64,000 nucleotides of DNA from Gammaproteobacteria bacterium (GTDB taxonomy: Bacteria; Pseudomonadota; Gammaproteobacteria; Poriferisulfidales; Poriferisulfidaceae), in the NCBI GenBank assembly GCA_026706895.1, contig JAPOXW010000020.1, positions 57,329 to 121,328 on the forward strand. The letters run 5' to 3'. A program made the position numbers and the translations under genes. Shown here in pieces: positions 30,966 to 41,496 of the stretch. Each line of letters starts with the position of its first letter. The first letter of the stretch is position 1. The notes below the pieces were generated by a model. That model saw nothing but the letters and a program-made list of their open reading frames with translations. It made no database searches and was not told where the DNA came from.

Positions 30966-33305
30966 ATGTTTCGCTCGAGATTCGGTCCGATTCTGCTCGT
31001 TCTTGCCCTAATGCTGGTGGTGCCGCGCGCATTTGCATTCATCGTGGAGGATATCGAGTTGCAGGGCCTGCAGCGCCTGGAGGCCGCGACCGTGTTCACC
31101 TATCTCCCGGTGGAGGTGGGCGAGGATTTCGACGTGTCCCGGACCAGCGAGGTGGTGCGAGCACTGTTCAAGTCCCAGCTGTTCAGCGACGTGGAGGTGT
31201 CGCGCCGCGGCAACGTGCTGGTCGTCAGGGTGGTGGAACGCCCGGCCATCACTGAAATTGCCTTCGAGGGCCTCGAGGTTATCAAGGACGAAACCCTGGA
31301 GGAGGTGCTGGAGGACGCCGGCATCGCGACCGGACGGATCTTCAACCAGCCGTTGCTGGACCGCCTCAACAACGAGATTCTGCAGCAGTACCACGCGATC
31401 GGCTTCTACAACGCGGAAGTTGCGGTCAGCGTCCACGACATGGGCGAGAACCGGGTGGCGGTCCATATCAACGTGGTGGAGGGCGAGCCGGCGACCATCC
31501 GGCAGGTGCACGTGGTCGGCAATGTCTCGTATACCGAGGAACGGCTGCTGGAACTGTTCGAATCCTCCGAGCCGGCCTGGTACGACATCATGGGCAACAC
31601 CGGCAAGTACTCGAAATTGCAGTTGTCGGGTGACCTGGAGCGGTTGCGTTCGTTCTACTTGAACCGGGGATTCCTGAAGTTCCGGGTGGATTCGGCGCAG
31701 ATTTCGCTGAGCCCGGATCGCGAGGGCATCTACATCACGGTCCACATCAACGAGGGCCGACGTTTCGTGGTGCGCGAGGTCTCCCTTTCCGGCATCTTCA
31801 TCGTGCCGCAGGCAGAACTGACCTCGTTGCTGACCATTCAGGCGGGCGAATATTTCTCCAGTGCGCGGGCACAGAGTTCCAGCAGCCGGCTGACCGCCCG
31901 GCTTGGCGAAGAAGGTTATTCCTTCGCCAAGGTCAACCCGGTCACCAATCTCGATGAGGAAGCGGGCGAGGTGACGGTCAACTTCTTCATTGATCCGGGT
32001 CAGCGAGTGTACGTGCGTCGTATCGACATCGTGGGCAACTACACGACCCAGGACGAGGTGCTGCGCCGGGAGTTGCGGCAGATGGAGGGAGCCTGGCTGT
32101 CGTCTCCGAACCTGGAACGCTCGCGCCGGCGTTTGCAGCGACTTCCGTATATCGACACCGTGGAGATTGCGCAAACCCGGGTCCCGGGCACCAACGACCA
32201 GGTCGACCTCATCATCACCGTCACCGAGCGGCTGGCCGGCAACTTCACGGCCGGCGCGGGGTTCAGCAGCGGAAGCGGCCTGTCGCTGGCGGCCGGCGTG
32301 GAGCAGGAGAACTTCTTCGGTACCGGCAACCGGGTCGGCATCCACTTCGACAACAGCGAGACCTCCACCCGGTATTCCTTCGACTTCTACAACCCGTACT
32401 ACACCATCAACGGCGTCAGCCGCAGCTTCGGCTTCAGCACGCGAAAGGTGGATACGTCGGGTGCCGACCAGCAGACCCAGTACGAGTCACGCGACTTCGC
32501 CGGCTATCTGAGCTACGGGATCCCGATCGCCGACGACAGCACTTTCACCTTCGCCGCCCGCTTCCAGAGGATTAATTTCGATGTGGGCAGGAGTTCGTCC
32601 TTCCTGGTGCTGGACTTCCTCGCGAATAACGACGGGGACTGCCTGTATACCGGGGTGATTGCGGACACGCAAGCGAACCTGTGGCACTGCGAGGCCACGT
32701 ACTACAACCTGTCGCTGATCGGCTCCTTTGCCTACGACACCCGCGACCGCAGCCTGTTTACGCGCGAGGGTTCGCTGCGCCAGGTATCCGCCCGGGCGAC
32801 GATGCCCGGCAGCGGCCTGGAGTACTACGTCCTGTCCTATGTCCAGGAGGAATACCTGAAACTGACCGAGGACCTGACGTTCGCGCTCAAGGGCGAGGCC
32901 GCCTATGGGGACGGCTACAGGGACACCGACGATCTGCCGTTCTCGCAGAAGTTCGTGATCGGCGGGCCGAGGAGCGTGCGCGGCTTTGAAATCAACACGC
33001 TGGCTCCCCGCGATGAATTCGACAAGCCATACGGCGGCAACCTGAAGTTGGGCTACTCGCTCGAACTGTCGTTTCCTCTCCCGTTCATCGACGAGGCCAA
33101 CCTGCGCGGGGCCATGTTCCTGGATTCGGGCTACGTATTCGAAGAGGCAGAGGATTTCGATTTCCAGGAGATGCGCGCTTCACTTGGCATCGGCATATCC
33201 TGGCTGTCGCCACTCGGGGGGGTGTCGATGAGCCTGTCTCTGCCGATTAACGATCACGAAACAGACAAGACGGAGTCGTACCAGTTCAATCTGGGGTCGC
33301 TCTAG
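30966..33305 (+). CDS. bamA: outer membrane protein assembly factor BamA
   Basis: 779 aa; signal peptide, five POTRA repeats and a C-terminal Omp85 beta-barrel ending ...SLSLPINDHETDKTESYQFNLGSL. Confidence 0.9.
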   Translation: MFRSRFGPILLVLALMLVVPRAFAFIVEDIELQGLQRLEAATVFTYLPVEVGEDFDVSRTSEVVRALFKSQLFSDVEVSRRGNVLVVRVVERPAITEIAFEGLEVIKDETLEEVLEDAGIATGRIFNQPLLDRLNNEILQQYHAIGFYNAEVAVSVHDMGENRVAVHINVVEGEPATIRQVHVVGNVSYTEERLLELFESSEPAWYDIMGNTGKYSKLQLSGDLERLRSFYLNRGFLKFRVDSAQISLSPDREGIYITVHINEGRRFVVREVSLSGIFIVPQAELTSLLTIQAGEYFSSARAQSSSSRLTARLGEEGYSFAKVNPVTNLDEEAGEVTVNFFIDPGQRVYVRRIDIVGNYTTQDEVLRRELRQMEGAWLSSPNLERSRRRLQRLPYIDTVEIAQTRVPGTNDQVDLIITVTERLAGNFTAGAGFSSGSGLSLAAGVEQENFFGTGNRVGIHFDNSETSTRYSFDFYNPYYTINGVSRSFGFSTRKVDTSGADQQTQYESRDFAGYLSYGIPIADDSTFTFAARFQRINFDVGRSSSFLVLDFLANNDGDCLYTGVIADTQANLWHCEATYYNLSLIGSFAYDTRDRSLFTREGSLRQVSARATMPGSGLEYYVLSYVQEEYLKLTEDLTFALKGEAAYGDGYRDTDDLPFSQKFVIGGPRSVRGFEINTLAPRDEFDKPYGGNLKLGYSLELSFPLPFIDEANLRGAMFLDSGYVFEEAEDFDFQEMRASLGIGISWLSPLGGVSMSLSLPINDHETDKTESYQFNLGSL

Positions 33306-33344
33306 CAACAGTGTAAAATGAGAGGCAATAGGAGCACTCAACTG

Positions 33345-33860
33345 ATGAAGAAATCATCCATTTTCTGGTCGCATGTGGTCGGTTTGGCATTGCTTGCCAT
33401 GGGCGGAACGGCTGCCGCACAAAACGCAAAAGTCGGATTCGTGGATGTCGGGCGCCTTCTGGAGGATTCTCCGCAGGCGGTGGCGGCTCGGCAGAAACTT
33501 CAAAACGAATTCGCACCCCGCAACGACGAGCTGGAAAAACTTCACAAAGAAGTTACCGATCTGGCCCAGAAGCTGGCGAATGAGAGCGACGTGATGTCGG
33601 AAGAACAGCGGCTTGAGCAGGAGCGAGAGGTGCAGCGTCGGCGCCGCGACTTCGAGCGCAAGCGCGACGAGGTGCGCGAGGATCTGGCGATCCGCCGCAA
33701 CGAGGAACTCGGCAAGCTGCAGGAAGAGGTCAATACGGTGGTCGCCGAGATTGCGAGCGAGGAGGGCTTCGACCTGATCCTCACCCAAGCCGTGTCCCTG
33801 TACGCCAGCAAGCGCATCGACATCACGGAGCGGGTGCTCAAGAAGATGAACAATCCGTAA
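33345..33860 (+). CDS. skp: periplasmic chaperone Skp (OmpH)
   Basis: signal peptide then coiled-coil Skp/OmpH sequence (KVGFVDVGRLLEDSPQAVAARQKLQNEF...). Confidence 0.8.
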   Translation: MKKSSIFWSHVVGLALLAMGGTAAAQNAKVGFVDVGRLLEDSPQAVAARQKLQNEFAPRNDELEKLHKEVTDLAQKLANESDVMSEEQRLEQEREVQRRRRDFERKRDEVREDLAIRRNEELGKLQEEVNTVVAEIASEEGFDLILTQAVSLYASKRIDITERVLKKMNNP

Positions 33861-33866
33861 CCGGAT

Positions 33867-34886
33867 GTGGTGTCGCTGACCCTGGGTCAGATCGCGGAAA
33901 TCGCGGACGCCCGGATTTCCGATCCTCCGCCGGTTCCGGATCTCCTTATCGATCACGCTTCCTCCCTGGGCACTGCCGGGCCCGGTTCCATTTCCTTCTA
34001 CAGTCACGCCCGCCACCGGGCTGAACTGCAACAGACCCAAGCGAGCGTGGTGCTGCTGCGCGAACCGGACCGGGCCGATTGCCCGGTTCCGGCGCTGTCC
34101 TGCAAGGATCCCTATCTCGGCATGGCGCGAGTGCTGCAGGCCTTGTACCCGATCCCCGAGGTGACGCATGCCGTCCATCCCGGCGCCCTCGTCGACGACA
34201 GCGCGCAGTTGGAGGCGCCGGTGCGGGTGGATTTCGGTTGCGTGGTGGGGGCGAATGCGCGCGTCGGCGCCGGCAGCGTGCTCGGCCCGCACTGTGTGAT
34301 CGGCGAAGGCGTGACCTTGGGCGAAGGCTGTGTCCTGCATGCCCGGGTTACCTTGAACGAAGGGGTCCGGGTCGGTGACCGGGTGGAGTTCTGGCCCGGC
34401 GTGGTGGTCGGATCCGACGGTTTCGGCTATGCCCAACAGGATCAGCAGTGGGTCAAACTGGTACACCGCGGCGGCGTACGGATCGGGGACGACTGCGAGA
34501 TCGGGTCCAACAGCACCATCGACCGCGGCATGCTGGATGACACCGTGATCGGCTGCGGGGTCAAGATCGACAACCAGGTGCAAGTTGCACACAACGTCCG
34601 CATCGGCGATCACTCCGCCATCGCCGGCAATGCGGGCATCGCGGGAAGCGCGAAGATTGGCCGCTACTGCCAGATCGGAGGGGCGGCCGGCGTGCAGGGC
34701 CACGTGGAGTTGGCCGATGGGGTTATCATTACAGGCATGTCCAAGGCGAACCAGACGCTGACCCGTGCCGGTGCATACAGTTCCGGCACGTCCATCCAGG
34801 AGAATGCGGACTGGTTGCGCAACGTGGCCCGCTTCAAGCAGCTCGACCGGATCGTGCGGGCCCTGAAGCAAGGAGAGAAGACGTGA
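33867..34886 (+). CDS. lpxD: UDP-3-O-(3-hydroxyacyl)glucosamine N-acyltransferase
   Basis: GTG start; left-handed beta-helix hexapeptide repeats; bamA-skp-lpxD-fabZ-lpxA order. Confidence 0.9.
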   Translation: MVSLTLGQIAEIADARISDPPPVPDLLIDHASSLGTAGPGSISFYSHARHRAELQQTQASVVLLREPDRADCPVPALSCKDPYLGMARVLQALYPIPEVTHAVHPGALVDDSAQLEAPVRVDFGCVVGANARVGAGSVLGPHCVIGEGVTLGEGCVLHARVTLNEGVRVGDRVEFWPGVVVGSDGFGYAQQDQQWVKLVHRGGVRIGDDCEIGSNSTIDRGMLDDTVIGCGVKIDNQVQVAHNVRIGDHSAIAGNAGIAGSAKIGRYCQIGGAAGVQGHVELADGVIITGMSKANQTLTRAGAYSSGTSIQENADWLRNVARFKQLDRIVRALKQGEKT

Positions 34887-35341
34887 GCGAAGGTTTTGAC
34901 ATCCAGGAGATCCAGCGGCTGCTGCCGCATCGTCACCCGTTCCTGCTGGTGGACCGGGTTCTGGAAATTGACCCCGGGGTATCGATTCAGGCGATCAAGA
35001 ACATTACGGTCGACGAACCATTCTTCCAAGGGCATTTCCCCGGAATCCCGATCTTCCCGGGCGTCCTGATCCTGGAGGTGATGGCCCAGGCTTCTGGCCT
35101 GCTGGTGTTTAAAACGCCGGAGTACTGCCCGGAGAACGACAACCTGTACATGTTCGTCGGGGTCGACAAGGCCCGCTTCAAGAAACCAGTCGTGCCTGGC
35201 GACCAGCTGGAGGTCGACGTGAAACTGATGTGGATGCGCCGGAACTGCGCCTCATTCGATGCCACCGCCTCAGTCGACGGCGAAGTCGTGGCCACCGCCG
35301 GGATCATGTGCATGTTCAAGGAACTGCCGTCAGAGGCGTAA
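34883..35341 (+). CDS. fabZ: 3-hydroxyacyl-ACP dehydratase FabZ
   Basis: LLPHRHPFLLVDRVLE, HFPGIPIFPGVLILEVMAQ hot-dog fold. Confidence 0.95.
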   Translation: MSEGFDIQEIQRLLPHRHPFLLVDRVLEIDPGVSIQAIKNITVDEPFFQGHFPGIPIFPGVLILEVMAQASGLLVFKTPEYCPENDNLYMFVGVDKARFKKPVVPGDQLEVDVKLMWMRRNCASFDATASVDGEVVATAGIMCMFKELPSEA

Positions 35342-35355
35342 CCGGACTCCGAGAC

Positions 35356-36138
35356 TTGAGTATTCATCCGACGGCCGTGGTGGACGCCGGGGCGGAGATC
35401 GACCCCACGGCGGAAATCGGCCCGTACGCGGTCATCGGCCCGCACGTGCGCATCGGCGCCGACACCTGGGTCGGCCCGCACGCCGTGGTCACCGGGCGCA
35501 CCACCGTGGGCCGGGAGAACCGGGTCTTCCAGTTTGCCTCGGTCGGCGAGATTCCGCAGGACAAGAAGTATGCCGGCGAGGACAGCGAACTGGTCATCGG
35601 CGACGGCAACACCATCCGCGAGTTCGTGACCCTCAACTGCGGCACGGCCCAGGGCGAGAACTGCACCCGGATCGGGAACCGGAACTGGATCATGGCGTAC
35701 GTGCACATTGCGCACGACTGCGTAATCGGGGACGACGTGACATTTGCGAACGGTGCAACGCTGGCGGGTCATGTCGAGATCGAGGATCACGCGATTCTGG
35801 GAGGCTTCACCCTGGTGCACCAGTTCTGCCGCATCGGACGCCATGCGTTCAGCGGCATGGGCTCCGCCTTGAACAAGGACCTCCCGCCTTTCGTGCTGGC
35901 ATCGGGCAACCTGGCCCGTCCTTACGGACTCAACCGCGAAGGATTGCGCCGGGCCGGCTTCTCCGAGGAGACGATGGAGGCGTTGTCACGGGCCTACAAG
36001 CTGCTGGTCCGTGTGTCGGGCGGGCAGCCGGAGGACGAGATCCAGCAACTGGCCGGACAATATCCGGAAGTGGAGCAGATGCGGGCGTTTATCGCAGAGA
36101 GTCGCCGCGGCATCATCCGCGAGAAGAGTTCCGACTGA
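35356..36138 (+). CDS. lpxA: acyl-ACP--UDP-N-acetylglucosamine O-acyltransferase
   Basis: TTG start 15 nt after fabZ stop; SIHPTAVVDAGAEI... hexapeptide repeats; 260 aa. Confidence 0.9.
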   Translation: MSIHPTAVVDAGAEIDPTAEIGPYAVIGPHVRIGADTWVGPHAVVTGRTTVGRENRVFQFASVGEIPQDKKYAGEDSELVIGDGNTIREFVTLNCGTAQGENCTRIGNRNWIMAYVHIAHDCVIGDDVTFANGATLAGHVEIEDHAILGGFTLVHQFCRIGRHAFSGMGSALNKDLPPFVLASGNLARPYGLNREGLRRAGFSEETMEALSRAYKLLVRVSGGQPEDEIQQLAGQYPEVEQMRAFIAESRRGIIREKSSD

Positions 36139-36190
36139 ATCGATTCGCTAGACGGTTTCTTGTGCAGAATGCCCTGCCCCATTTATGCTT

Positions 36191-36219
36191 TTGACAGCAT
36201 ATAATCTATAAGTTATATT
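36191..36219 (+). promoter_or_regulatory. putative sigma70 promoter (TTGACA - 17 bp - TATATT) in an AT-rich spacer after lpxA
   Basis: near-consensus -35 and a good -10 in an unusually AT-rich 150-bp stretch upstream of the inserted membrane-protein gene. Confidence 0.3.
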
Positions 36220-36296
36220 ATTCGCATGAGGTGGGCGGTTGCGTTTGATGTAATTTCTGGGCAAGAGCCTGGGGTTTTGGCTGCCGGGGCCGAACA

Positions 36297-36632
36297 ATGC
36301 GGAGGCGTGTCTGCTCTTGGTATCATGAGAGCGTTCTCATGGCTTTTGGGCGCGAAATCAAGATGGAGTTCGAGCGAGTGAAAGTGAGTCCCGAGATGGT
36401 GGGGATCGTCGGCGGATGGCTGACCGTTCTCGTGTTCGTGTGGACCCTAGGCCAGGATATGAGCGATTTGCGCACGGACATGAGCGATCTGCGCGTGGAC
36501 ATGAGCGATCTGCGCACGGAGCTGAAGGGCGATATCGCGCATCTCAACGGACGCATGGCGCGTGTCGAAGGCTTGCTCGAAGGTTACATCGAGAGATCTC
36601 GGACTGGGGAAGATATTGCGGTAACCGAATGA
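36297..36632 (+). CDS. hypothetical membrane-anchored coiled-coil protein with tandem DMSDLR(T/V) repeats
   Basis: one TM helix (MVGIVGGWLTVLVFVWTL), then DMSDLRT-DMSDLRV-DMSDLRT-ELKGDIAHLNGRMARVEGLLEGYI heptad coiled coil; start uncertain (36297/36339/36363). Confidence 0.45.
   Translation: MRRRVCSWYHESVLMAFGREIKMEFERVKVSPEMVGIVGGWLTVLVFVWTLGQDMSDLRTDMSDLRVDMSDLRTELKGDIAHLNGRMARVEGLLEGYIERSRTGEDIAVTE
36456..36518 (+). repeat. 3 x 21-bp perfect/near-perfect tandem repeat (GAYATGAGCGATYTGCGCRYG) inside the membrane-protein gene
   Basis: gatatgagcgatttgcgcacg / gacatgagcgatctgcgcgtg / gacatgagcgatctgcgcacg, in frame, encoding DMSDLR(T/V). Confidence 0.85.
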
Positions 36633-36728
36633 TCCGATCAGACAGGTCTTTCGCCTTTGGGACAGAGCGGTTCTACTGAGCGAGCGAGAAAGGAGATATA
36701 GAGTTCCGGGCAATCACCGAGAGTTTTT

Positions 36729-37082
36729 GTGGGCAGTAAAACATCGAAGACTTTGGAGGAGGTGCTGAACCAGTTCTCTCCTGAGCAGCGCAAGAAAATC
36801 GACGAACGAACGGACGAACTGATCGCCGAAATCATGTCGTTGCGGGATTTGCGCAAAGTCCGGGAGCAGACTCAGGAGCATGTCGCCGAGGTGCTCGAAA
36901 TCACCCAGGAGAATGTTTCGCGCATTGAGCGACGTCGGGACCTCCTGGTCTCGACGCTCAGGCGGCACGTCGAAGCGTTAGGCGGGCGATTGAGCCTGAT
37001 CGCAAAGTTTCCCGACCGTCCTCCAGTGGAACTGACCGGCATCGCCGATTCGGATGACAGCGAATCTCCGGCTCGGTCGTAA
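36729..37082 (+). CDS. XRE-family HTH regulator of the HigA-like antitoxin type
   Basis: GTG start; SLRDLRKVREQTQEHVAEVLEITQENVSRIERRRDLLVSTLRRHVEALGGRLSLIAKFPD matches antitoxins usually paired with an upstream RelE/ParE/HigB toxin. Confidence 0.7.
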   Translation: MGSKTSKTLEEVLNQFSPEQRKKIDERTDELIAEIMSLRDLRKVREQTQEHVAEVLEITQENVSRIERRRDLLVSTLRRHVEALGGRLSLIAKFPDRPPVELTGIADSDDSESPARS

Positions 37083-37172
37083 GGCGGGTCGGCTCGGGTG
37101 TGGCATCGTCTGTCGGCGCAGCCTCCCTGGGCATCTGCTTAATATGACTACATTGGTCTTTTCTGGCTGAAA

Positions 37173-37414
37173 ATGCAGGAAATTCAACTGCGCGAGGCAA
37201 AGGCGAAACTGTCCGCCCTCGTCGACGGCCCTATCATGGAGCCACCGTGGTGATTACCCGACACGGCAAGCCCCGAGCGGTTATTCTGGGGGTTGACGAA
37301 TGGAATCGGCTCCGCCGGGTCCCTTCCTTCGGTGAATTGCTGATGTCGGCTCCCATAGAGGACGGGGACCTGCCGGAACGGGACACCAGTCCTCCGCGTG
37401 AGATCGAGTTTTAG
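37173..37414 (+). pseudogene. Phd/YefM-family antitoxin gene disrupted by a frameshift
   Basis: frame 1: MQEIQLREAKAKLSALVDGPIMEPPW* (stop 37251-37253); -1 frame continues VVITRHGKPRAVILGVDEWNRLRRVPSFGELLMSAPIEDGDLPERDTSPPREIEF*; together a complete antitoxin. Confidence 0.55.
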
Positions 37415-37422
37415 GGTTGTCC

Positions 37423-37527
37423 GTGTACCTCGCGGACACAAACGTGCTATCGCTTGGGGCACTGGACCGACCCGATGCGCCCATACTGGAGTGGATGCAC
37501 GGGCACTCCGATAGCCTCCGAATATAG
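37423..37527 (+). pseudogene. truncated VapC (PIN) toxin remnant
   Basis: VYLADTNVLSLGALDRPDAPILEWMHGHSDSLRI* is the first ~34 aa of a PIN toxin including the first catalytic Asp, then terminates; abuts the lpxB 3' end. Confidence 0.45.
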
Positions 37528-37561: not shown

Positions 37562-38686
37562 TCACCCGGACGTCGAAATCACCTGTTCCGCGCAGTCGGC
37601 CAGCTGGCGCATGCCGGCAGCCGGCCCCAGCCGCTCCTCGACTTTCTGCAGTCGCGCGCGCATCTGGTCGAGCTGGGTCGGATCGTCCAGCCATGGCGTA
37701 AGGGCAGCCGTAACCTGCCGGGGTGTTGCATCGGCCTGGATCAACTCGGTGACCAGGTCTTCGCCCGCGACGATGTTCGCGAGGCAATACCGGTCGATGC
37801 GCACCAGCAGGCGTGCCAGCAGGTAGCTCAGGTTCGCCAGACGATAAATCATGCAGAACGGGACGCGCATCAAAGCCAGTTGCAAAGTGACCGTGCCGGA
37901 GGCCGCCGCCGCCATGTCGCACACCTGCATGGCGTCGTAGACCGGTTCCTGCAGGCATTTCACTTCGGGCAGGTCGCCGAGCCACGGGGCGTAGTCGCTC
38001 GGTTTCAGCCCGGGCGGCATCACCAGCGCGAACTGTGGCCGGGCGGGATGATTCCTCAGTTCGCGCACCGCTCCGGCGCAGACCGGCATCAGGTGGGCGA
38101 GTTCGCTGCGACGGGAGCCGGGGAAGAGGCCGACCACGGGGCGCTGCGCGTCCAGTCCCCAGCGCTCGCGGACGGCATCGGGCGATCGCGTCGGACTTGT
38201 TTGCCCGCGCAGGGGGTGTCCGACATAAGTGACGGGCACGCGATGTTTTTCGTAGAAATCCCGCTCGAACGGGAAGACCACCGCCATGTGGTCGACGTGA
38301 CGGCGGATGGCGTGCACCCGCCAGGCCCGCCAGGCCCAGATCTGCGGGCTGATGTAGAACAGCACCGGCACGCCGTGTCGATGCGCGAACCGGGCGAGCC
38401 GCAAGTTGAATTCCGGGTAGTCGACCAGCACCAGAAGTTGGGGTTTCCAGGCCAGGACCTGTGCCTTGAGGGTCTTCAGCGCACTTCGGATTTCCCGGTA
38501 ATGGCGCAAGACCTCCACCAGCCCGACGACCGCAAGCTCGGTGGAATCGACCACCAGTTCGATGCCGGCTTCGCGTGAGGCTTCGCCGCCCATGCCGGAC
38601 CAGGTCCATTCGGGATGCCGGGCATGCAGTTCCTTGACCAGTTCCGCTGCGTATCGATCCCCGGAGGCCTCCCCGGAGACCAGCAT
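37562..38686 (-). CDS. lpxB: lipid-A-disaccharide synthase
   Basis: 375 aa from ATG 38686 (MLVSGEASGDRYAAELVKEL...); GT-B fold; the 454-aa track ORF is a GC-driven extension. Confidence 0.9.
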   Translation of the reverse strand: MLVSGEASGDRYAAELVKELHARHPEWTWSGMGGEASREAGIELVVDSTELAVVGLVEVLRHYREIRSALKTLKAQVLAWKPQLLVLVDYPEFNLRLARFAHRHGVPVLFYISPQIWAWRAWRVHAIRRHVDHMAVVFPFERDFYEKHRVPVTYVGHPLRGQTSPTRSPDAVRERWGLDAQRPVVGLFPGSRRSELAHLMPVCAGAVRELRNHPARPQFALVMPPGLKPSDYAPWLGDLPEVKCLQEPVYDAMQVCDMAAAASGTVTLQLALMRVPFCMIYRLANLSYLLARLLVRIDRYCLANIVAGEDLVTELIQADATPRQVTAALTPWLDDPTQLDQMRARLQKVEERLGPAAGMRQLADCAEQVISTSG

Positions 38687-38702
38687 CAAGTGGGGGGCCG
38701 TT

Positions 38703-39800
38703 TCAGGATTCGGCACGAGCGAGACTGGCGCAGATTTGTTCGATCTGGGCGGGCGAAAGCTCCGGGAACATTGGCAGCGACAGGCACTGGTCGCAGACCT
38801 GCTCGGCCGCCGGCAGCGAAACCCCATCCGCCCATGGCACATAGGCTTCCTGCCGGTGCAGGGGGATCGGATAGTAGATCCGGCTTTCAATGCCGTCCTT
38901 GGCCAGTTGCTCCTGGAGGGCGTCACGCTGCGGGCTCAGCAGGGTGTATTGGTGCCAGACGTGGCCGTCCGCGTCCGCGGGAGGCTGGATTCCGTCCAGT
39001 TTCTGGAGCCTTTCGGCATAGCGGCCTGCGGCCTGCCGGCGTTTCTCGTTCCATTCGGCGACATGCGGGAGTTTGATGCGCAGGACGGCGGCCTGGAGCT
39101 CGTCGAGGCGGCTGTTCAGGCCCAGCGTTTCGTGGTGGTAGGGCTGGCTGGAGCCGTGGTTGCGCAAGGCGCGCAGCCGGGTGGCGAGCTCGGGGTCCCC
39201 GGTCGCCACGGCACCGCCGTCGCCGCATCCGCCCAGGTTCTTGCTGGGGAAGAAGCTGAAGGAGGCGATCTGCCCGAATGTGCCGGTCGCCTGGCCTGCG
39301 GTTCTTGCACCAAAACTTTGCGCGCAATCCTCGACAATGGCGACATCCGGCCCGATTGCCTCTCGGACGGCGGAAACGTCGGCGGGTCGGCCGTACAGGT
39401 GCACGACCACGGCCGCGCGGGTGCGGGATGTAATCGCGTTTCGGCACGATTCGGGATCGACCAGGAAAGAGTCGGGGTCGATGTCCACGAAAACCGGGCG
39501 CGCGCCGGTCAGGGCGACGGCCTCGGCGGGCGCGGCGAATGTGAAGGCCGGGACCAGGACCTCGTCGCCGGGACCAATATCAAGTGCACGCAGGGACAGG
39601 CACAGTGCGTCCGTGCCGGAAGCGCAACTGACCACGTGGCCGATGCCGAGCATCTCGCCGAGTTCTGCTTCCAGGGCCCCGACCTCCGGACCGAGCACGT
39701 ACCGGCCGCTGCGCAGCACGCGCAGGGCGGCGGCCTCGATATCCTCCTGCAGGGCCGCGTATTGCTTGGTCAGGTCCAGGATGGGAATGGTGGGGCTCAT
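38703..39800 (-). CDS. gnnB: DegT/DnrJ/EryC1-family PLP aminotransferase (GnnB-like UDP-3-keto-GlcNAc transaminase)
   Basis: 365 aa; aminotransferase class V-like fold with the PLP-lysine region (SFFPSKNLGGCGDGGAV); lies between lpxB and a Gfo/Idh/MocA gene as in the gnnA-gnnB lipid A loci. Confidence 0.7.
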   Translation of the reverse strand: MSPTIPILDLTKQYAALQEDIEAAALRVLRSGRYVLGPEVGALEAELGEMLGIGHVVSCASGTDALCLSLRALDIGPGDEVLVPAFTFAAPAEAVALTGARPVFVDIDPDSFLVDPESCRNAITSRTRAAVVVHLYGRPADVSAVREAIGPDVAIVEDCAQSFGARTAGQATGTFGQIASFSFFPSKNLGGCGDGGAVATGDPELATRLRALRNHGSSQPYHHETLGLNSRLDELQAAVLRIKLPHVAEWNEKRRQAAGRYAERLQKLDGIQPPADADGHVWHQYTLLSPQRDALQEQLAKDGIESRIYYPIPLHRQEAYVPWADGVSLPAAEQVCDQCLSLPMFPELSPAQIEQICASLARAES

Positions 39801-40744
39801 GAGGCGTCCGTCTCCCGCATTCGCCGGGTGACTTCCAGTGCGGTGCGCAAGGCACGCAGGCCATCTTCTCCCCGCACCATGGGTTCGGTGCCCTGCCGGA
39901 TGCAGTCGATGAAGTGGTGGATCTCCTCGCGCAGCGAATCGGTCTCCTGGAAGGCCTCGGTCGTATGCTCGATGCGTTCCGAGGGTGGGGCATCGCCTTC
40001 GCGCAGGCGGTAACGGTCCAGTTCCCGCTTGTGCAGGTCGAGAGCGTAGCAGGAATGGTGCTGGAAGACGCGCATCCGGCGCTCGCTGCGGCGGCTCAGG
40101 CGGCTGGCGGTGACATTGGCGACGCAGCCGCCGGGGAACTCGAGCCGGGCATTGGCGATGTCCAGGGTGTCGCCGATCACGGCGGCGCCGCTGGCGCGGA
40201 TTTCATGGGGATCCTCGCCGACCACGGTCAGGGCCAGATCGATGTCGTGGATCATCAGGTCCAGGGTCACGTCGATTTCGGCGCCGCGCGGAGTCCAGGG
40301 CGCCAGGCGGTGGACTTCGATGAAACGGGGGGTCTCAAGCCCCTGCATCAGGGCGCAGAACGCCGAGTTGAACCGCTCCAGCAGGCCGACCTGAACGATG
40401 CGTTGCTTCTGGCGGGCGAGATCGATCAGTTCGGTGGCTTCTTCGACCGAGGAGGTGAAAGGCTTCTCGACCAGCACGTGGCAATCGGCTTCCAGGCAGG
40501 CCCGGGTGATCTCGTAGTGTTTCGCGGTCGGCACGACGATGCTGACCGCATCCGCTTGGCCGAGGATTTCGCGGTAGTCGGTGAAGCCGGGGACGTCGAG
40601 TTCTTCGCAGGCGGCGGCGAGGCGTTCGGAATCGGTGTCGACCACGCCGACCAACTCGGAATCGCCTAGGTCAGCGTATTTCTGCGCGTGAAACCGCCCC
40701 AGGTAACCGACCCCGATGACGGCGGTGCGAAGCGGGGAAGTCAC
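39797..40744 (-). CDS. gnnA: Gfo/Idh/MocA-family NAD-dependent oxidoreductase (GnnA-like UDP-GlcNAc 3-dehydrogenase)
   Basis: Rossmann N-terminus AVIGVGYLGRFHAQKY, EKP motif; probable GTG start at 40744; the 437-aa track ORF is extended by GC artefact. Confidence 0.65.
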   Translation of the reverse strand: MTSPLRTAVIGVGYLGRFHAQKYADLGDSELVGVVDTDSERLAAACEELDVPGFTDYREILGQADAVSIVVPTAKHYEITRACLEADCHVLVEKPFTSSVEEATELIDLARQKQRIVQVGLLERFNSAFCALMQGLETPRFIEVHRLAPWTPRGAEIDVTLDLMIHDIDLALTVVGEDPHEIRASGAAVIGDTLDIANARLEFPGGCVANVTASRLSRRSERRMRVFQHHSCYALDLHKRELDRYRLREGDAPPSERIEHTTEAFQETDSLREEIHHFIDCIRQGTEPMVRGEDGLRALRTALEVTRRMRETDAS

Positions 40745-40881
40745 GGGAGAAAAGGCGGTCGGACAGTGTGGCGCGGTTCCCGAAATTATAGCCCGCGGGA
40801 CTTTTCGAGGCACGGATTCCGGCTTGGGTACAATGCAGTTGTACACCCAATTTCGCTGTCTGGCCTTTCTCGATCCTGCCG

Positions 40882-41496
40882 ATGCCCGTTTCGCTGGAGT
40901 TATTGCCGACCCTGCCGGATCTTGGCTGCGTTGCGGGGGTGGACGAAGCAGGGCGGGGCGCGTTGGCCGGCCCGGTTGCCGCCGCCGCCGTGGTGCTGCC
41001 GGCGGATTGCAGTATCGAGGGCCTGACCGATTCCAAGAAGCTGACGCCAGCGCAGCGGGCGCGCGTGGCGGTGCAGGTTCGGGCCTCTGCCCGGGCGTAC
41101 GCGGTGGCATTCGTGCCGGCGCAGGAGATTGACCAAATCAACATCCTGCAGGCGAGCCTGCGTGCGATGGCGGAAGCGGTGGCCCGACTGCCGAACGGGA
41201 TCGAACACGTGCTGGTAGACGGCCGGCATTGTCCGGAATTGCCGTATCCGGCGACGGCGGTGGTTGGCGGAGATGCCCGGGTGGCCAGCATCAGCGCGGC
41301 ATCGGTGCTCGCCAAAGAGGCGCGCGACGCCTGGATGCGGCACTATGACTTGCAGGAGCCATGCTACCGGTTCACCCGGCACAAGGGTTACCCGTCGGTG
41401 GAACACCTGCGCGCGCTGTCCGAACACGGGCCCGGGCGGCAGCATCGCCGCAGTTACGCCCCGGTGCGCGCAGTTTTGGAGGAGCAGGCCGCATGA
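40882..41496 (+). CDS. rnhB: ribonuclease HII
   Basis: VAGVDEAGRGALAGPV...LTDSKKLT RNase HII motifs; 204 aa. Confidence 0.9.
   Translation: MPVSLELLPTLPDLGCVAGVDEAGRGALAGPVAAAAVVLPADCSIEGLTDSKKLTPAQRARVAVQVRASARAYAVAFVPAQEIDQINILQASLRAMAEAVARLPNGIEHVLVDGRHCPELPYPATAVVGGDARVASISAASVLAKEARDAWMRHYDLQEPCYRFTRHKGYPSVEHLRALSEHGPGRQHRRSYAPVRAVLEEQAA

Follow-up and report, generated by a model that had tools for sequence, protein, structure and literature searches.

Why does a HigA-like regulator, of a kind that normally follows a toxin gene, follow the gene of a small membrane coiled-coil protein between lpxA and an inverted lpxB? The pair lies at a chromosomal site, and four readings have to be weighed: a toxin-antitoxin (TA) system with an exchanged toxin, an antitoxin reused as a regulator, two functionally unrelated genes, or a remnant without present function. 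We analysed the window, the whole 64-kb stretch of DNA that holds the locus, together with related genomes and homologous loci. The reading that best accommodates the evidence is that the cassette is a remodelled HigBA-type operon in which a domesticated antitoxin now regulates the membrane protein and may also bind it. We put the probability of this reading at about one half.

A low-GC island between lpxA and lpxB

The cassette falls in the low-GC island that had been noticed earlier downstream of lpxA, with a GC content of 0.50-0.60 over about 36100-37200 compared with 0.62-0.70 in the flanks. Its features are collected in Table 1. The site is an insertion hot spot. Several of the relatives compared here are named as sponge MAGs, and the genomes are small (1.5-1.9 Mb).

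Table 1 Features of the cassette and of the adjoining module, in window coordinates
Feature	Position	Strand	Details
Sigma-70-type promoter	36191..36219	+	-35 TTGACA 36191-36196, 17-nt spacer, -10 TATATT 36214-36219; 11/12 matches
Operator-like 20-bp dyad	36199..36218	.	Arms ATATAATCTA and TAAGTTATAT; between -35 and -10, overlapping -10
Gp49/HigB toxin ORF relic	36226..36381	+	ATG 6 nt past -10; codons 1-8 (MRWAVAFD) toxin-derived
Small membrane coiled-coil protein gene	36339..36632	+	97 aa per NCBI; longest ORF form 36297-36632
Transmembrane helix	36396..36449	+	MVGIVGGWLTVLVFVWTL; mean hydropathy 1.94
Three 21-nt repeat units	36456..36518	+	DMSDLRT/DMSDLRV/DMSDLRT; TRF: period 21, 3.1 copies, 86% matches
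Family signature	36552..36587	+	RMARVEGLLEGY; most conserved part of the protein; E, G, L, L, G (near-)invariant
Spacer, membrane gene to HTH gene	36633..36728	+	96 nt; conserved among relatives
HigA-like XRE-family HTH protein	36729..37082	+	117 aa, GTG start; Pfam HTH_31/HTH_37/HTH_3/Sigma70_r4
Frameshifted Phd/YefM antitoxin pseudogene	37173..37414	+	PF02604 and TIGR01552 match second half; aligns with intact 80-aa copy of L007
VapC/PIN toxin remnant	37423..37527	+	34 codons; intact 147-149-aa PIN genes here in L007 and L009

The Phd pseudogene belongs to a separate, decayed TA module adjoining the cassette. The whole cassette might likewise be a decaying remnant without present function, like the frameshifted Phd gene and truncated VapC gene beside it, particularly as its own toxin ORF has been destroyed and the version in one relative (L100) is decaying. 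We consider this very improbable: both ORFs of the pair are intact in at least ten lineages, where pN/pS is 0.12-0.46, the promoter and dyad are conserved, and small genomes such as these tend to shed useless DNA. No Rfam family matches between 35900 and 37700 at E ≤ 1, which speaks against a structured RNA or known sRNA.

The regulator resembles antitoxins of Gp49 toxins

The identification of the 117-aa protein as an XRE regulator was correct. In addition to its Pfam HTH matches, a profile of its family matches the HigA2 (7EWC, E 3.4e-10) and HigA3 (6LTY, E 4.4e-9) antitoxins of M. tuberculosis. The earlier note had also classed it with antitoxins that normally follow a toxin, and the neighbourhoods of its homologues agree: out of at least 562 HTH loci we took the 80 best, and 68 of these have a toxin gene of the Gp49/HigB type (PF05973) directly upstream, usually with a 4-bp overlap. 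Values of pN/pS between 0.12 and 0.44 show that the HTH gene is under purifying selection, and by homology and neighbourhood it is the former antitoxin gene of a Gp49 toxin.

The toxin itself is missing. As had been reported for RelE-like genes in general, the Gp49 profile finds no match in any frame of the island beyond the N-terminal relic described below, and none in the 64-kb window. A tblastn match of a single Gp49 protein to the minus strand (about 37244-37372, E 0.005) is attributed to chance, being antisense to the Phd pseudogene and having a profile score below 0. An nhmmer hint of a toxin 3' remnant in the 96-nt spacer is not supported either: a profile made from the final 150 nt of toxin genes has no match in six such spacers, and shuffled sequences reach 5.3 bits.

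Promoter, dyad and first toxin codons are retained

The TTGACA-17-TATATT promoter proposed from the letters alone would by itself be no better than chance, shuffled sequences giving 0.8 +/- 1.1 such matches. We take it as real because every relative conserves it, as do canonical Gp49-HTH loci from other phyla. A DNA profile of the canonical loci matches the window at 36173-36249 (E 2.5e-10), and the architecture that relatives and canonical loci have in common consists of TTGACA-17-(C/T)ATATT with a 20-bp dyad and, upstream, an ATGC box, which reads TATGC at 36184-36188 in the window. The arms of the dyad have the form ATAT(G/A)...(C/T)ATAT in all compared loci, and self-complementary positions number 16 of 20 in the window, 20 of 20 in the sister strain L013 and 12-18 of 20 in canonical loci. 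The automated repeat search, which skips simple AT-rich repeats, lists no inverted repeat at this position, a result that the direct count of 16/20 overrides. It is this dyad that the HTH protein would be expected to bind.

The first ORF is placed as in a leaderless-type arrangement, and begins with a remnant of the toxin. N-termini compared with it are MxWEVxFDPAFD in Gp49 proteins, MAWDVVFT in L013 and MAWGVIFD in L095. The toxin ORF is cut after its first 8-15 codons and the remainder is gone, but the reading frame continues: it is open for 51 codons, and its closing TGA overlaps the GTG at 36378 (GTGA). In seven lineages the distance from the ATG to GTGAA is 152, 128, 149, 152, 146, 152 and 146 nt, which is always 2 mod 3; the five length variants of the relic ORF are all in frame, and the frame is broken only in L100. 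The relic ORF is thus maintained. L100 has also lost the HTH gene. The promoter, the dyad and the position of the ATG 6 nt after the -10 element are common to canonical loci of many phyla and are best regarded as ancestral.

The membrane protein belongs to a widespread family

The small ORF had been described as encoding one transmembrane helix followed by DMSDLRT/DMSDLRV/DMSDLRT heptads that run into a coiled coil, and these features stand. The proposed length of 90-110 aa is probably too great: from candidate starts at ATG 36363, GTG 36378, GTG 36384 and ATG 36396, the true protein is probably about 82 aa long and begins at GTG 36384 (VSPEM), because the N-terminus of the family (MSPEM...) aligns there. 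ATG 36297 and ATG 36339 are unlikely as general starts, as the frame of L007 is closed upstream of the equivalent of 36339 and L009 has ACG at that position. AlphaFold2 models a single continuous helix over residues 10-86, with a pLDDT of only 62.

A search of other genomes for the repeat protein, as the earlier note had suggested, returned about 27 close homologues with one to five copies of the heptad, a repeat that TRF delimits at 36455-36520 in the window. Protein lengths among these relatives are 83, 90, 97, 104, 111 and 118 aa, that is, in steps of 7, and the transmembrane helix is 7 residues longer in some of them. Pairwise pN/pS of 0.15-0.46 indicates that the membrane gene is real, functional and under purifying selection. 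Across the family, lysine and arginine occur 7 times in the N-terminal tails and 73 times in the 15 residues after the helix; by the positive-inside rule the protein is therefore predicted to be oriented N-out/C-in with its coiled coil in the cytoplasm.

Members of the wider family have a short N-terminal tail, a transmembrane helix, variable repeats and a C-terminal RMAR(L/V)EGLLEG motif. The window protein has the N-terminal M(S/T)PE(L/M/F)(I/V) directly before a single transmembrane helix, with VSPEMVGIVGGWLTVLVFVWTL aligning from profile position 1, and tandem xxLRxE-type repeats after the helix, analogous to the repeats of distant members. It also has the signature LRERMA(R/K)LEGL(L/F)EG, in which LNG replaces LRE. 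A profile built without the window protein or its close kin matches it with 78.6 bits (E 1.8e-23) over profile positions 1-87, starting at VSPEM. At E ≤ 1e-3 the profile of the narrow family matches 1,224 clusters (50% identity), which in part probably include generic coiled coils, and the membrane protein matches no Pfam, NCBIfam, PADLOC or PHROG family at threshold. It is thus a member of a large and widespread family that is uncurated and uncharacterised.

This family membership bears on where the gene came from. De novo birth from the wreck of the toxin is rejected, as the profile of distant members matches the ORF from end to end (78 bits) and the Gp49 profile has no match past the relic; the membrane gene was acquired and is not toxin-derived. 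MAFFT aligned the heptad TDMSDLRV in frame with TNMKEIRF of Gp49, which we treat as chance because repeats of this type also occur in distant members unconnected with Gp49. A phage or plasmid origin is also rejected: two family members find no match in plasmid and phage records by tblastn, in which the BLAST low-complexity filter may hide some matches, and the family alignment, run against viral contigs, yields one weak relative.

Six allelic states at one site

The sister strain L013, whose LpxA and LpxB are 95% and 94% identical to those of the window, carries an intact Gp49-HTH pair at the same site under the same promoter. Together with the retained toxin promoter, start and first codons, this supports the proposal that the membrane protein sits in the toxin slot. 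L095 has only the first 8 toxin codons, the rest having been cleanly removed, and its HTH gene is an orphan. The membrane protein-HTH pair is found in the window and in L001-L009, L012, L092, L093, L096 and L099, in two structurally different junction types: that of the window, and that of L092, where an 84-aa family member occupies the toxin slot and overlaps the HTH gene by ATGA. L001 has duplicated the membrane gene and has two copies for one HTH gene, and in L009 an IS605 element lies between the two genes. A further version is interrupted by a restriction-modification system. L100 has kept the membrane gene and lost the HTH gene; its membrane protein reads VEDLLKG in place of VEGLLEG and has a W to G change, and the -10 element of its promoter is damaged. 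One orthologous site in closely related small-genome bacteria thus displays six states: intact Gp49-HigA, deleted toxin with orphan antitoxin, two types of membrane protein-HigA operon, a restriction-modification-interrupted version and a decaying membrane-only version.

The pairing is old. Four further pairs are suggested by diverged membrane proteins (40-60% identity) that apparently share contigs with HTH homologues (71-81%), and overall membrane proteins down to 30-60% identity co-reside with HTH homologues of 69-81%. The two genes co-diverge. Neither the 80 best of at least 562 HTH loci nor the neighbourhoods that we inspected contain the pair outside the lpxA-lpxB site of this clade; among those 80 loci it is present solely in L012, which belongs to the same clade and has it at the same site, and the three pair loci found by a metagenome scan are again all from this clade.

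Could the two genes nevertheless be functionally unrelated? The HTH protein would then be an orphan anti-addiction antitoxin against Gp49 toxins of the surrounding community, and the membrane gene would merely borrow the promoter of the dead toxin. Metagenomes of this kind do contain Gp49-HTH modules in great number and from diverse phyla, the window HTH protein retains residues in common with the Gp49-paired HTH protein of L013, each gene occurs by itself (HTH in L095, membrane gene in L100), and insertions are frequent at the site. We think this unlikely, since the pairing persists over the deep divergence described above and in both junction types, and since the frame of the relic ORF is preserved as far as the membrane gene start, which argues for selected co-expression.

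A remodelled operon or a new toxin-antitoxin pair

In the remodelled operon that we favour, the ancestral promoter, dyad and toxin start codon are retained, the membrane gene fills the slot of the truncated toxin and the HigA-like gene comes next. Co-transcription of the two genes is likely because their spacer contains no predicted terminator. A dimer of the HTH protein would still repress the promoter through the dyad. The transcript would be leaderless, so that ribosomes would initiate at the relic ATG, read the relic ORF of 43-52 codons, stop at or beside the start of the membrane gene and be passed on to it by termination-reinitiation. The membrane protein would insert N-out/C-in and form a parallel coiled coil in the cytoplasm, varying in length by 7 residues and ending in the RMARxEGLLEG motif, which would probably bind a protein partner. 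This account resembles the second option of the earlier note, an orphan regulator controlling a repeat-bearing envelope protein. That option fits at least as well as a TA pair where the regulator and the membrane protein are concerned, although the coil is predicted to lie in the cytoplasm and not in the envelope.

The first option had been a membrane toxin-antitoxin or abortive-infection pair, which stays putative and on balance is not favoured. Its most explicit form is a new type II TA system that arose by partner swap: the membrane protein would inhibit growth, either by perturbing the membrane or because its cytoplasmic coil titrates a cellular partner, and the HigA-like protein would neutralize it by direct binding and also autoregulate. 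Such a system is possible, although we would not expect it. The membrane gene lies exactly in the place of the toxin in a bona fide TA operon and in L092 overlaps the antitoxin gene by the canonical 4 nt, which counts against domestication; the predicted cytoplasmic coil would make contact with the HTH protein possible. Purifying selection and long co-inheritance of two co-diverging genes in genomes of this size would likewise be expected of an addictive pair, and the motif changes and damaged -10 element of HTH-less L100 are what would be seen had a toxin needed disarming first. Protein-neutralized membrane toxins and TA partner swapping are both documented (PMC8832971, PMC10440598).

Against this, the wider family occurs solo in the two contexts sampled (L010/L011 and L102, with no adjacent partner), and the pair was found at a single chromosomal site, which would not be expected of a mobile TA module. 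Two membrane genes accompany one HTH gene in L001, an insertion sequence separates the genes in L009, and in the clade of the window a 96-nt spacer takes the place of an overlap. A strongly conserved soluble motif and length variation in units of 7 residues resemble a scaffold or adaptor more than a pore-former. No PADLOC system matches the membrane protein, and the HTH protein gives a generic HTH match and a weak PbeC match (E 0.0065), so that a known defence system is rejected. Because family members occur solo, the pair was found at one site and PADLOC has no match, and because of the duplication in L001, the split in L009 and the persistence of the membrane gene without HTH in L100, we lean slightly towards the view that the membrane protein is not a classical lethal toxin.

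Broad statistics of gene neighbourhoods are the usual basis for inferring that TA partners have been swapped or antitoxins domesticated, and the lpxA-lpxB site offers a natural experiment on the rewiring of a TA operon. Our analysis also delimits a large uncurated family of small membrane coiled-coil proteins with an invariant motif and 7-residue length steps. If the membrane protein is toxic, this family gains a function; if it is not, the locus shows clearly how the promoter, operator and antitoxin of a TA system can come to serve as an ordinary regulatory module. The broader proposal that a HigA-type antitoxin has switched partner here and now neutralizes the membrane protein, as a new type II TA family amid toxin exchange, strikes us as doubtful. 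Were it true, the wider family of about 1,200 clusters would be a class of effectors that modulate growth and had gone unrecognised, and the toxin-derived leaderless ORF would be a translational coupling device for a new gene.

Relation to known systems

HigBA modules (Gp49/DUF891, PF05973, with a HigA-like XRE protein, for example HigBA2 and HigBA3 of M. tuberculosis) are the nearest counterpart. They share with the window a homologous antitoxin, a toxin slot ahead of it, an operator-like dyad in the promoter and, as in dozens of canonical loci, a first ORF whose start lies 6 nt past the -10 element, and L013 has an intact Gp49-HTH allele at the same site. By contrast, the window has no RelE-superfamily toxin beyond its first 8-15 codons, and its antitoxin gene is preceded by a gene for an unrelated membrane protein and by 96 nt of spacer.

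The PanA-PanT membrane disruptors and toxFtsL:PanA of the NetFlax network are membrane toxins neutralized by a protein (PMC8832971, PMC10440598). The likeness is that a small transmembrane protein, in some cases with a coiled coil, is encoded beside a protein antitoxin of a family otherwise paired with an unrelated toxin fold, as in partner swapping; adjacency of the two genes is here conserved across lineages. However, the antitoxin is HigA-like rather than Panacea, and toxicity and neutralization are putative. Nor is the pair known to move as a module: none was found in unrelated genomes among the best 80 HTH loci or in the metagenome scan. Where sampled, the membrane family is mostly solo, with the putative toxin standing without antitoxin in L010/L011, in L102 and, with mutated motif and damaged promoter, in L100.

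PspB and phage Rz-type i-spanins resemble the window protein in architecture only, with an N-terminal transmembrane helix, a coiled coil and about 75-110 aa. It has no significant sequence relation to them and lies in no lysis-cassette or psp context, and the coil of Rz is periplasmic whereas that of the window protein is predicted to be cytoplasmic. The chromosomal lpxA-lpxB context and the near absence of the family from viral contigs and phage records argue against membership of the Rz type; other family members give weak PHROG matches to Rz-like spanins. The long conserved soluble domain is atypical of type I membrane toxins of the Hok, TisB and Fst type, for which an undescribed antisense RNA might be present at the locus.

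Orphan or domesticated antitoxins and anti-addiction modules are cases in which an antitoxin gene and its autoregulated promoter outlive the loss of the toxin. L095 represents this pure orphan state at the lpxA-lpxB site. The window differs in that a new gene has been recruited and has co-diverged with the antitoxin, and in that the toxin-derived leader ORF has been retained.

The locus between lpxA and lpxB

As an earlier note on this DNA had described, a GC-poor island follows lpxA (GC 0.50-0.60 across the lpxA-lpxB gap against 0.62-0.70 around it in a composition scan) and carries a TTGACA-17-TATATT promoter, a small membrane-protein gene and a gene for a 117-aa HTH regulator. In the protein from the small ORF a single hydrophobic helix is followed by DMSDLRT, DMSDLRV and DMSDLRT, encoded by a 21-nt repeat (3.1 copies, 86% match), and then by a heptad-periodic segment; AlphaFold2 models this protein as one long helix with modest confidence, in agreement with the single TM helix and coiled coil proposed in that note.

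Features of the lpxA-lpxB gap and its flanks, in window positions
Feature	Position	Strand	Remarks
bamA, skp, lpxD, fabZ, lpxA	30966-36138	+	
Promoter	36191-36196 and 36214-36219		TTGACA, 17 nt, TATATT
Small membrane ORF	36297-36632 (open)		One hydrophobic helix and heptads
Spacer	Between membrane ORF and HTH gene		96 nt
HTH gene	36729-37082		117 aa
Phd/YefM gene	37173-37414		Frameshifted: 37173-37253 and 37247-37414
VapC remnant	37423-37527		34 codons
lpxB	from ~37562	-	Minus-strand block 37562-41110
DegT-type aminotransferase	38703-39800	-	
GFO/IDH/MocA oxidoreductase	39797-41110	-	Longest ORF

Downstream of the HTH gene lies a second TA module (37173-37527), separate and decayed, in which a frameshift splits the Phd/YefM antitoxin and the VapC/PIN toxin is truncated; both are intact (80 and 149 aa) at the equivalent place in L007, a relative's locus. 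lpxB, opposite in orientation to lpxA, forms an apparent operon with the aminotransferase and oxidoreductase genes, an arrangement kept in all relatives. We take these two neighbours to resemble GnnB and GnnA, which synthesise the UDP-GlcNAc3N needed for diamino lipid A.

The regulator and its Gp49 partners

The HTH-family profile matches the solved structures of M. tuberculosis HigA2 (7EWC, E 3.4e-10) and HigA3 (6LTY, E 4.4e-9). Searching one genome per species, we found 562 or more relatives, spread over many phyla, and examined the best 80 loci. An intact ORF of ~122 aa lies directly 5' of the HTH gene in 49 of them, typically overlapping it by 4 nt, and the products of these ORFs belong to PF05973/Gp49 (E 1e-20 to 1e-23); with frameshifted copies included, a Gp49-like stretch is found upstream in 68/80. 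The homologues are not consistently orphan, and the regulator does resemble antitoxins that normally follow a RelE/ParE/HigB-type toxin, as had been supposed. It is predicted to be a dedicated Gp49-toxin antitoxin. By the same count of matches the Gp49-HTH module (canonical loci L014-L091) is very widespread across phyla, with HTH proteins ~60-65% identical between phyla; several of the MAGs bear sponge-isolate names (APA_bin, IRC4_bin, RHO1_bin).

Canonical loci of other phyla have the same promoter as the window (TTGACA, 17 nt, (C/T)ATATT). Their toxin ATG stands 6 nt after the -10, with no space for a leader, and this stereotyped arrangement suggests that toxin mRNAs are leaderless throughout the family.

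Replacement of the toxin at one orthologous site

In both trees the MAG locus L013 branches within the clade (LpxA 95% and LpxB 94% identical to the window's); at the equivalent site it carries an intact Gp49 gene and then the HTH gene. Its promoter aligns base for base with that of the window. A 20-bp dyad in the promoter spacer, with ATAT(G/A)...(C/T)ATAT arms, is common to the window, L013 and canonical loci, and is self-complementary at 16/20 positions in the window and 20/20 in L013. A DNA profile of the canonical loci matches window positions 36173-36249 (E 2.5e-10), that is, the promoter and first eight codons. This relic of the toxin begins MRWAVAFD in the window and MEWTVALDSLAGQE and MGWTVALDPLAGQEP in relatives, compared with MxWEVxFDPAFDxEF in Gp49 proteins. 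A Gp49 search found no toxin trace past ~codon 8-15 in the window, so that the earlier observation of a membrane protein in the toxin slot, with no RelE-like gene, stands. A 3' relic of the toxin, suspected in the 96-nt spacer, failed a direct test. We regard it as established that a HigBA-type module has been rebuilt to give this operon.

All seven close homologues with fetched neighbourhoods lie in the order lpxA-[cassette]-lpxB(-), and the HTH gene follows the membrane gene in all except L100. That locus has the membrane gene alone, with a damaged -10, a broken relic frame and a mutated signature motif. L001 has a tandem second membrane-gene copy and an rve transposase, L009 has an IS605 OrfB/TnpB between the membrane and HTH genes, and Phd and/or PIN genes occur in L004 and L006-L009. 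Other states are a clean deletion of the toxin beyond codon 8, immediately followed by the HTH start (L095); an 84-aa TM protein matching the family profile (E 2e-13), encoded directly after the promoter without a relic and overlapping the HTH start by ATGA (L092); and promoter and relic followed by an inserted D12 methyltransferase and EcoRV fragment, then HTH (L094). The L095 gap also holds Fic and a RelE-HTH pair. Insertions in L001, L009, L094 and L095 mark the gap as a hot spot for such events. Cassette type is discordant with the lpxA and lpxB trees, and alleles have therefore been exchanged by recombination.

The toxin-derived ATG opens a 43-52-codon ORF in 8/9 lineages, with a variable middle of at least four different lengths. 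The distance from this ATG to the GTGAA at the membrane gene's start (152, 128, 149, 152, 146, 152 and 146 nt) is nevertheless 2 mod 3 each time, so that the relic stop TGA overlaps GTG 36378. In L009 a point change puts the relic stop on the ATG of M23, giving ATGA; in L099 the frame is a different one, yet a stop follows only 9 nt later. Only L100 has lost the relic frame. The mRNA would be leaderless, and the relic ORF may bring ribosomes to the membrane gene, whose start could be 36363, 36378, 36384 or 36396.

A family of small membrane proteins

The ~27 close homologues of the small ORF (three from NCBI Gammaproteobacteria bacterium MAGs, the others metagenome proteins) are 83, 90, 97, 104, 111 or 118 aa long, in 7-aa steps because heptad number varies from 1 to 5, and their TM helix has two forms, 7 residues apart. 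Length variation across 36456-36632 and its relatives is thus all in 7-residue units, including the TM insertion, and hydrophobic a-positions hold one continuous register, much like a molecular ruler; the L007 and L099 proteins have additions of 11 and 7 residues. One database relative of 36339-36679, P0028, joins the membrane-protein N-terminus to a +1-frame tail (GHERSAHGAERRYRAS...), which points to a frameshift inside the 21-nt repeat tract of its contig, through sequencing error or non-multiple-of-3 slippage.

Pairwise pN/pS of the membrane frame is 0.15-0.46 (pS 0.35-0.69 for between-lineage pairs). By our reading of the alignment, substitutions 3' of the relic stop are mostly synonymous in this frame, and those 5' of it mostly non-synonymous in both frames. 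To judge from these patterns, the small ORF is a real gene under selection. We regard it as established that both it and the HTH gene are functional; that the cassette is a functionless remnant is most improbable.

The protein falls into no Pfam, NCBIfam, PHROG or PADLOC family. A narrow-family profile matches 1,224 clusters at E<=1e-3 among 1.8 billion representatives, many of them multi-stretch coiled-coil matches. Among the matches inspected, about two dozen distant members (74-113 aa) share the window protein's layout: an M(S/T)PE(L/F)I N-terminus, one TM helix, short repeats in variable number and a near-invariant terminal LRERMA(R/K)(L/V)EGL(L/F)EG. A profile of distant members only matches the window ORF end to end from VSPEM at GTG 36384 (78.6 bits, E 1.8e-23 among 884 window ORFs), which rules out de novo birth; the gene was therefore acquired. 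The family is essentially absent from the viral contigs, phage records and plasmid records searched. Summed over the family, K/R number 7 in the N-tails and 73 in the 15 residues past the helix, so the coiled coil should face the cytoplasm.

Function of the pair

All functional steps are read from sequence. The membrane and HTH genes have stayed together over deep divergence, which we consider established because the membrane proteins are 30-60% identical, their co-resident HTH homologues 69-81%, and two different junction designs carry the pair. We think it improbable that they are unrelated co-residents, with the HTH protein an anti-addiction antitoxin.

The membrane gene occupies the toxin slot, its L092 counterpart overlaps the HTH gene, the predicted cytoplasmic coil is within HTH reach and the HTH-less L100 copy looks disarmed. 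These features would fit a true new TA pair with the membrane protein as toxin, and protein-neutralised membrane toxins and TA partner swapping are documented (PMC8832971, PMC10440598). We nevertheless find such a pair somewhat unlikely: two family members sampled outside the locus have no partner gene beside them, the pairing is seen at the lpxA-lpxB site only (best 80 HTH loci and fetched neighbourhoods), the membrane gene can be duplicated (L001) or parted from HTH by an IS (L009), and a 96-nt spacer precedes the HTH gene. The highly conserved soluble motif and ruler-like lengths also count against it, and would sooner fit an adaptor or scaffold than a protein that disrupts membranes. Our preferred reading, with a probability of about 0.5, is that the HTH protein is a domesticated regulator, possibly also a partner, of a non-lethal membrane protein.

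The loss of toxins, orphan antitoxins and the swapping of partners have all been described before. New here are the pairing of this membrane protein with a HigA-like HTH, the series of cassette states at one orthologous site, a leader ORF derived from the toxin and retained, and a large, uncurated family of small proteins that is now delimited.

The window has no second TM/coiled-coil ORF after the HTH gene. Three relatives have one directly 3' of it (L007:5805-6170, 121 aa; L009:7084-7443; L096:3349-3684), with an N-terminal TM helix, a repeat-rich coiled coil and a weak family-profile match (E 2e-5).
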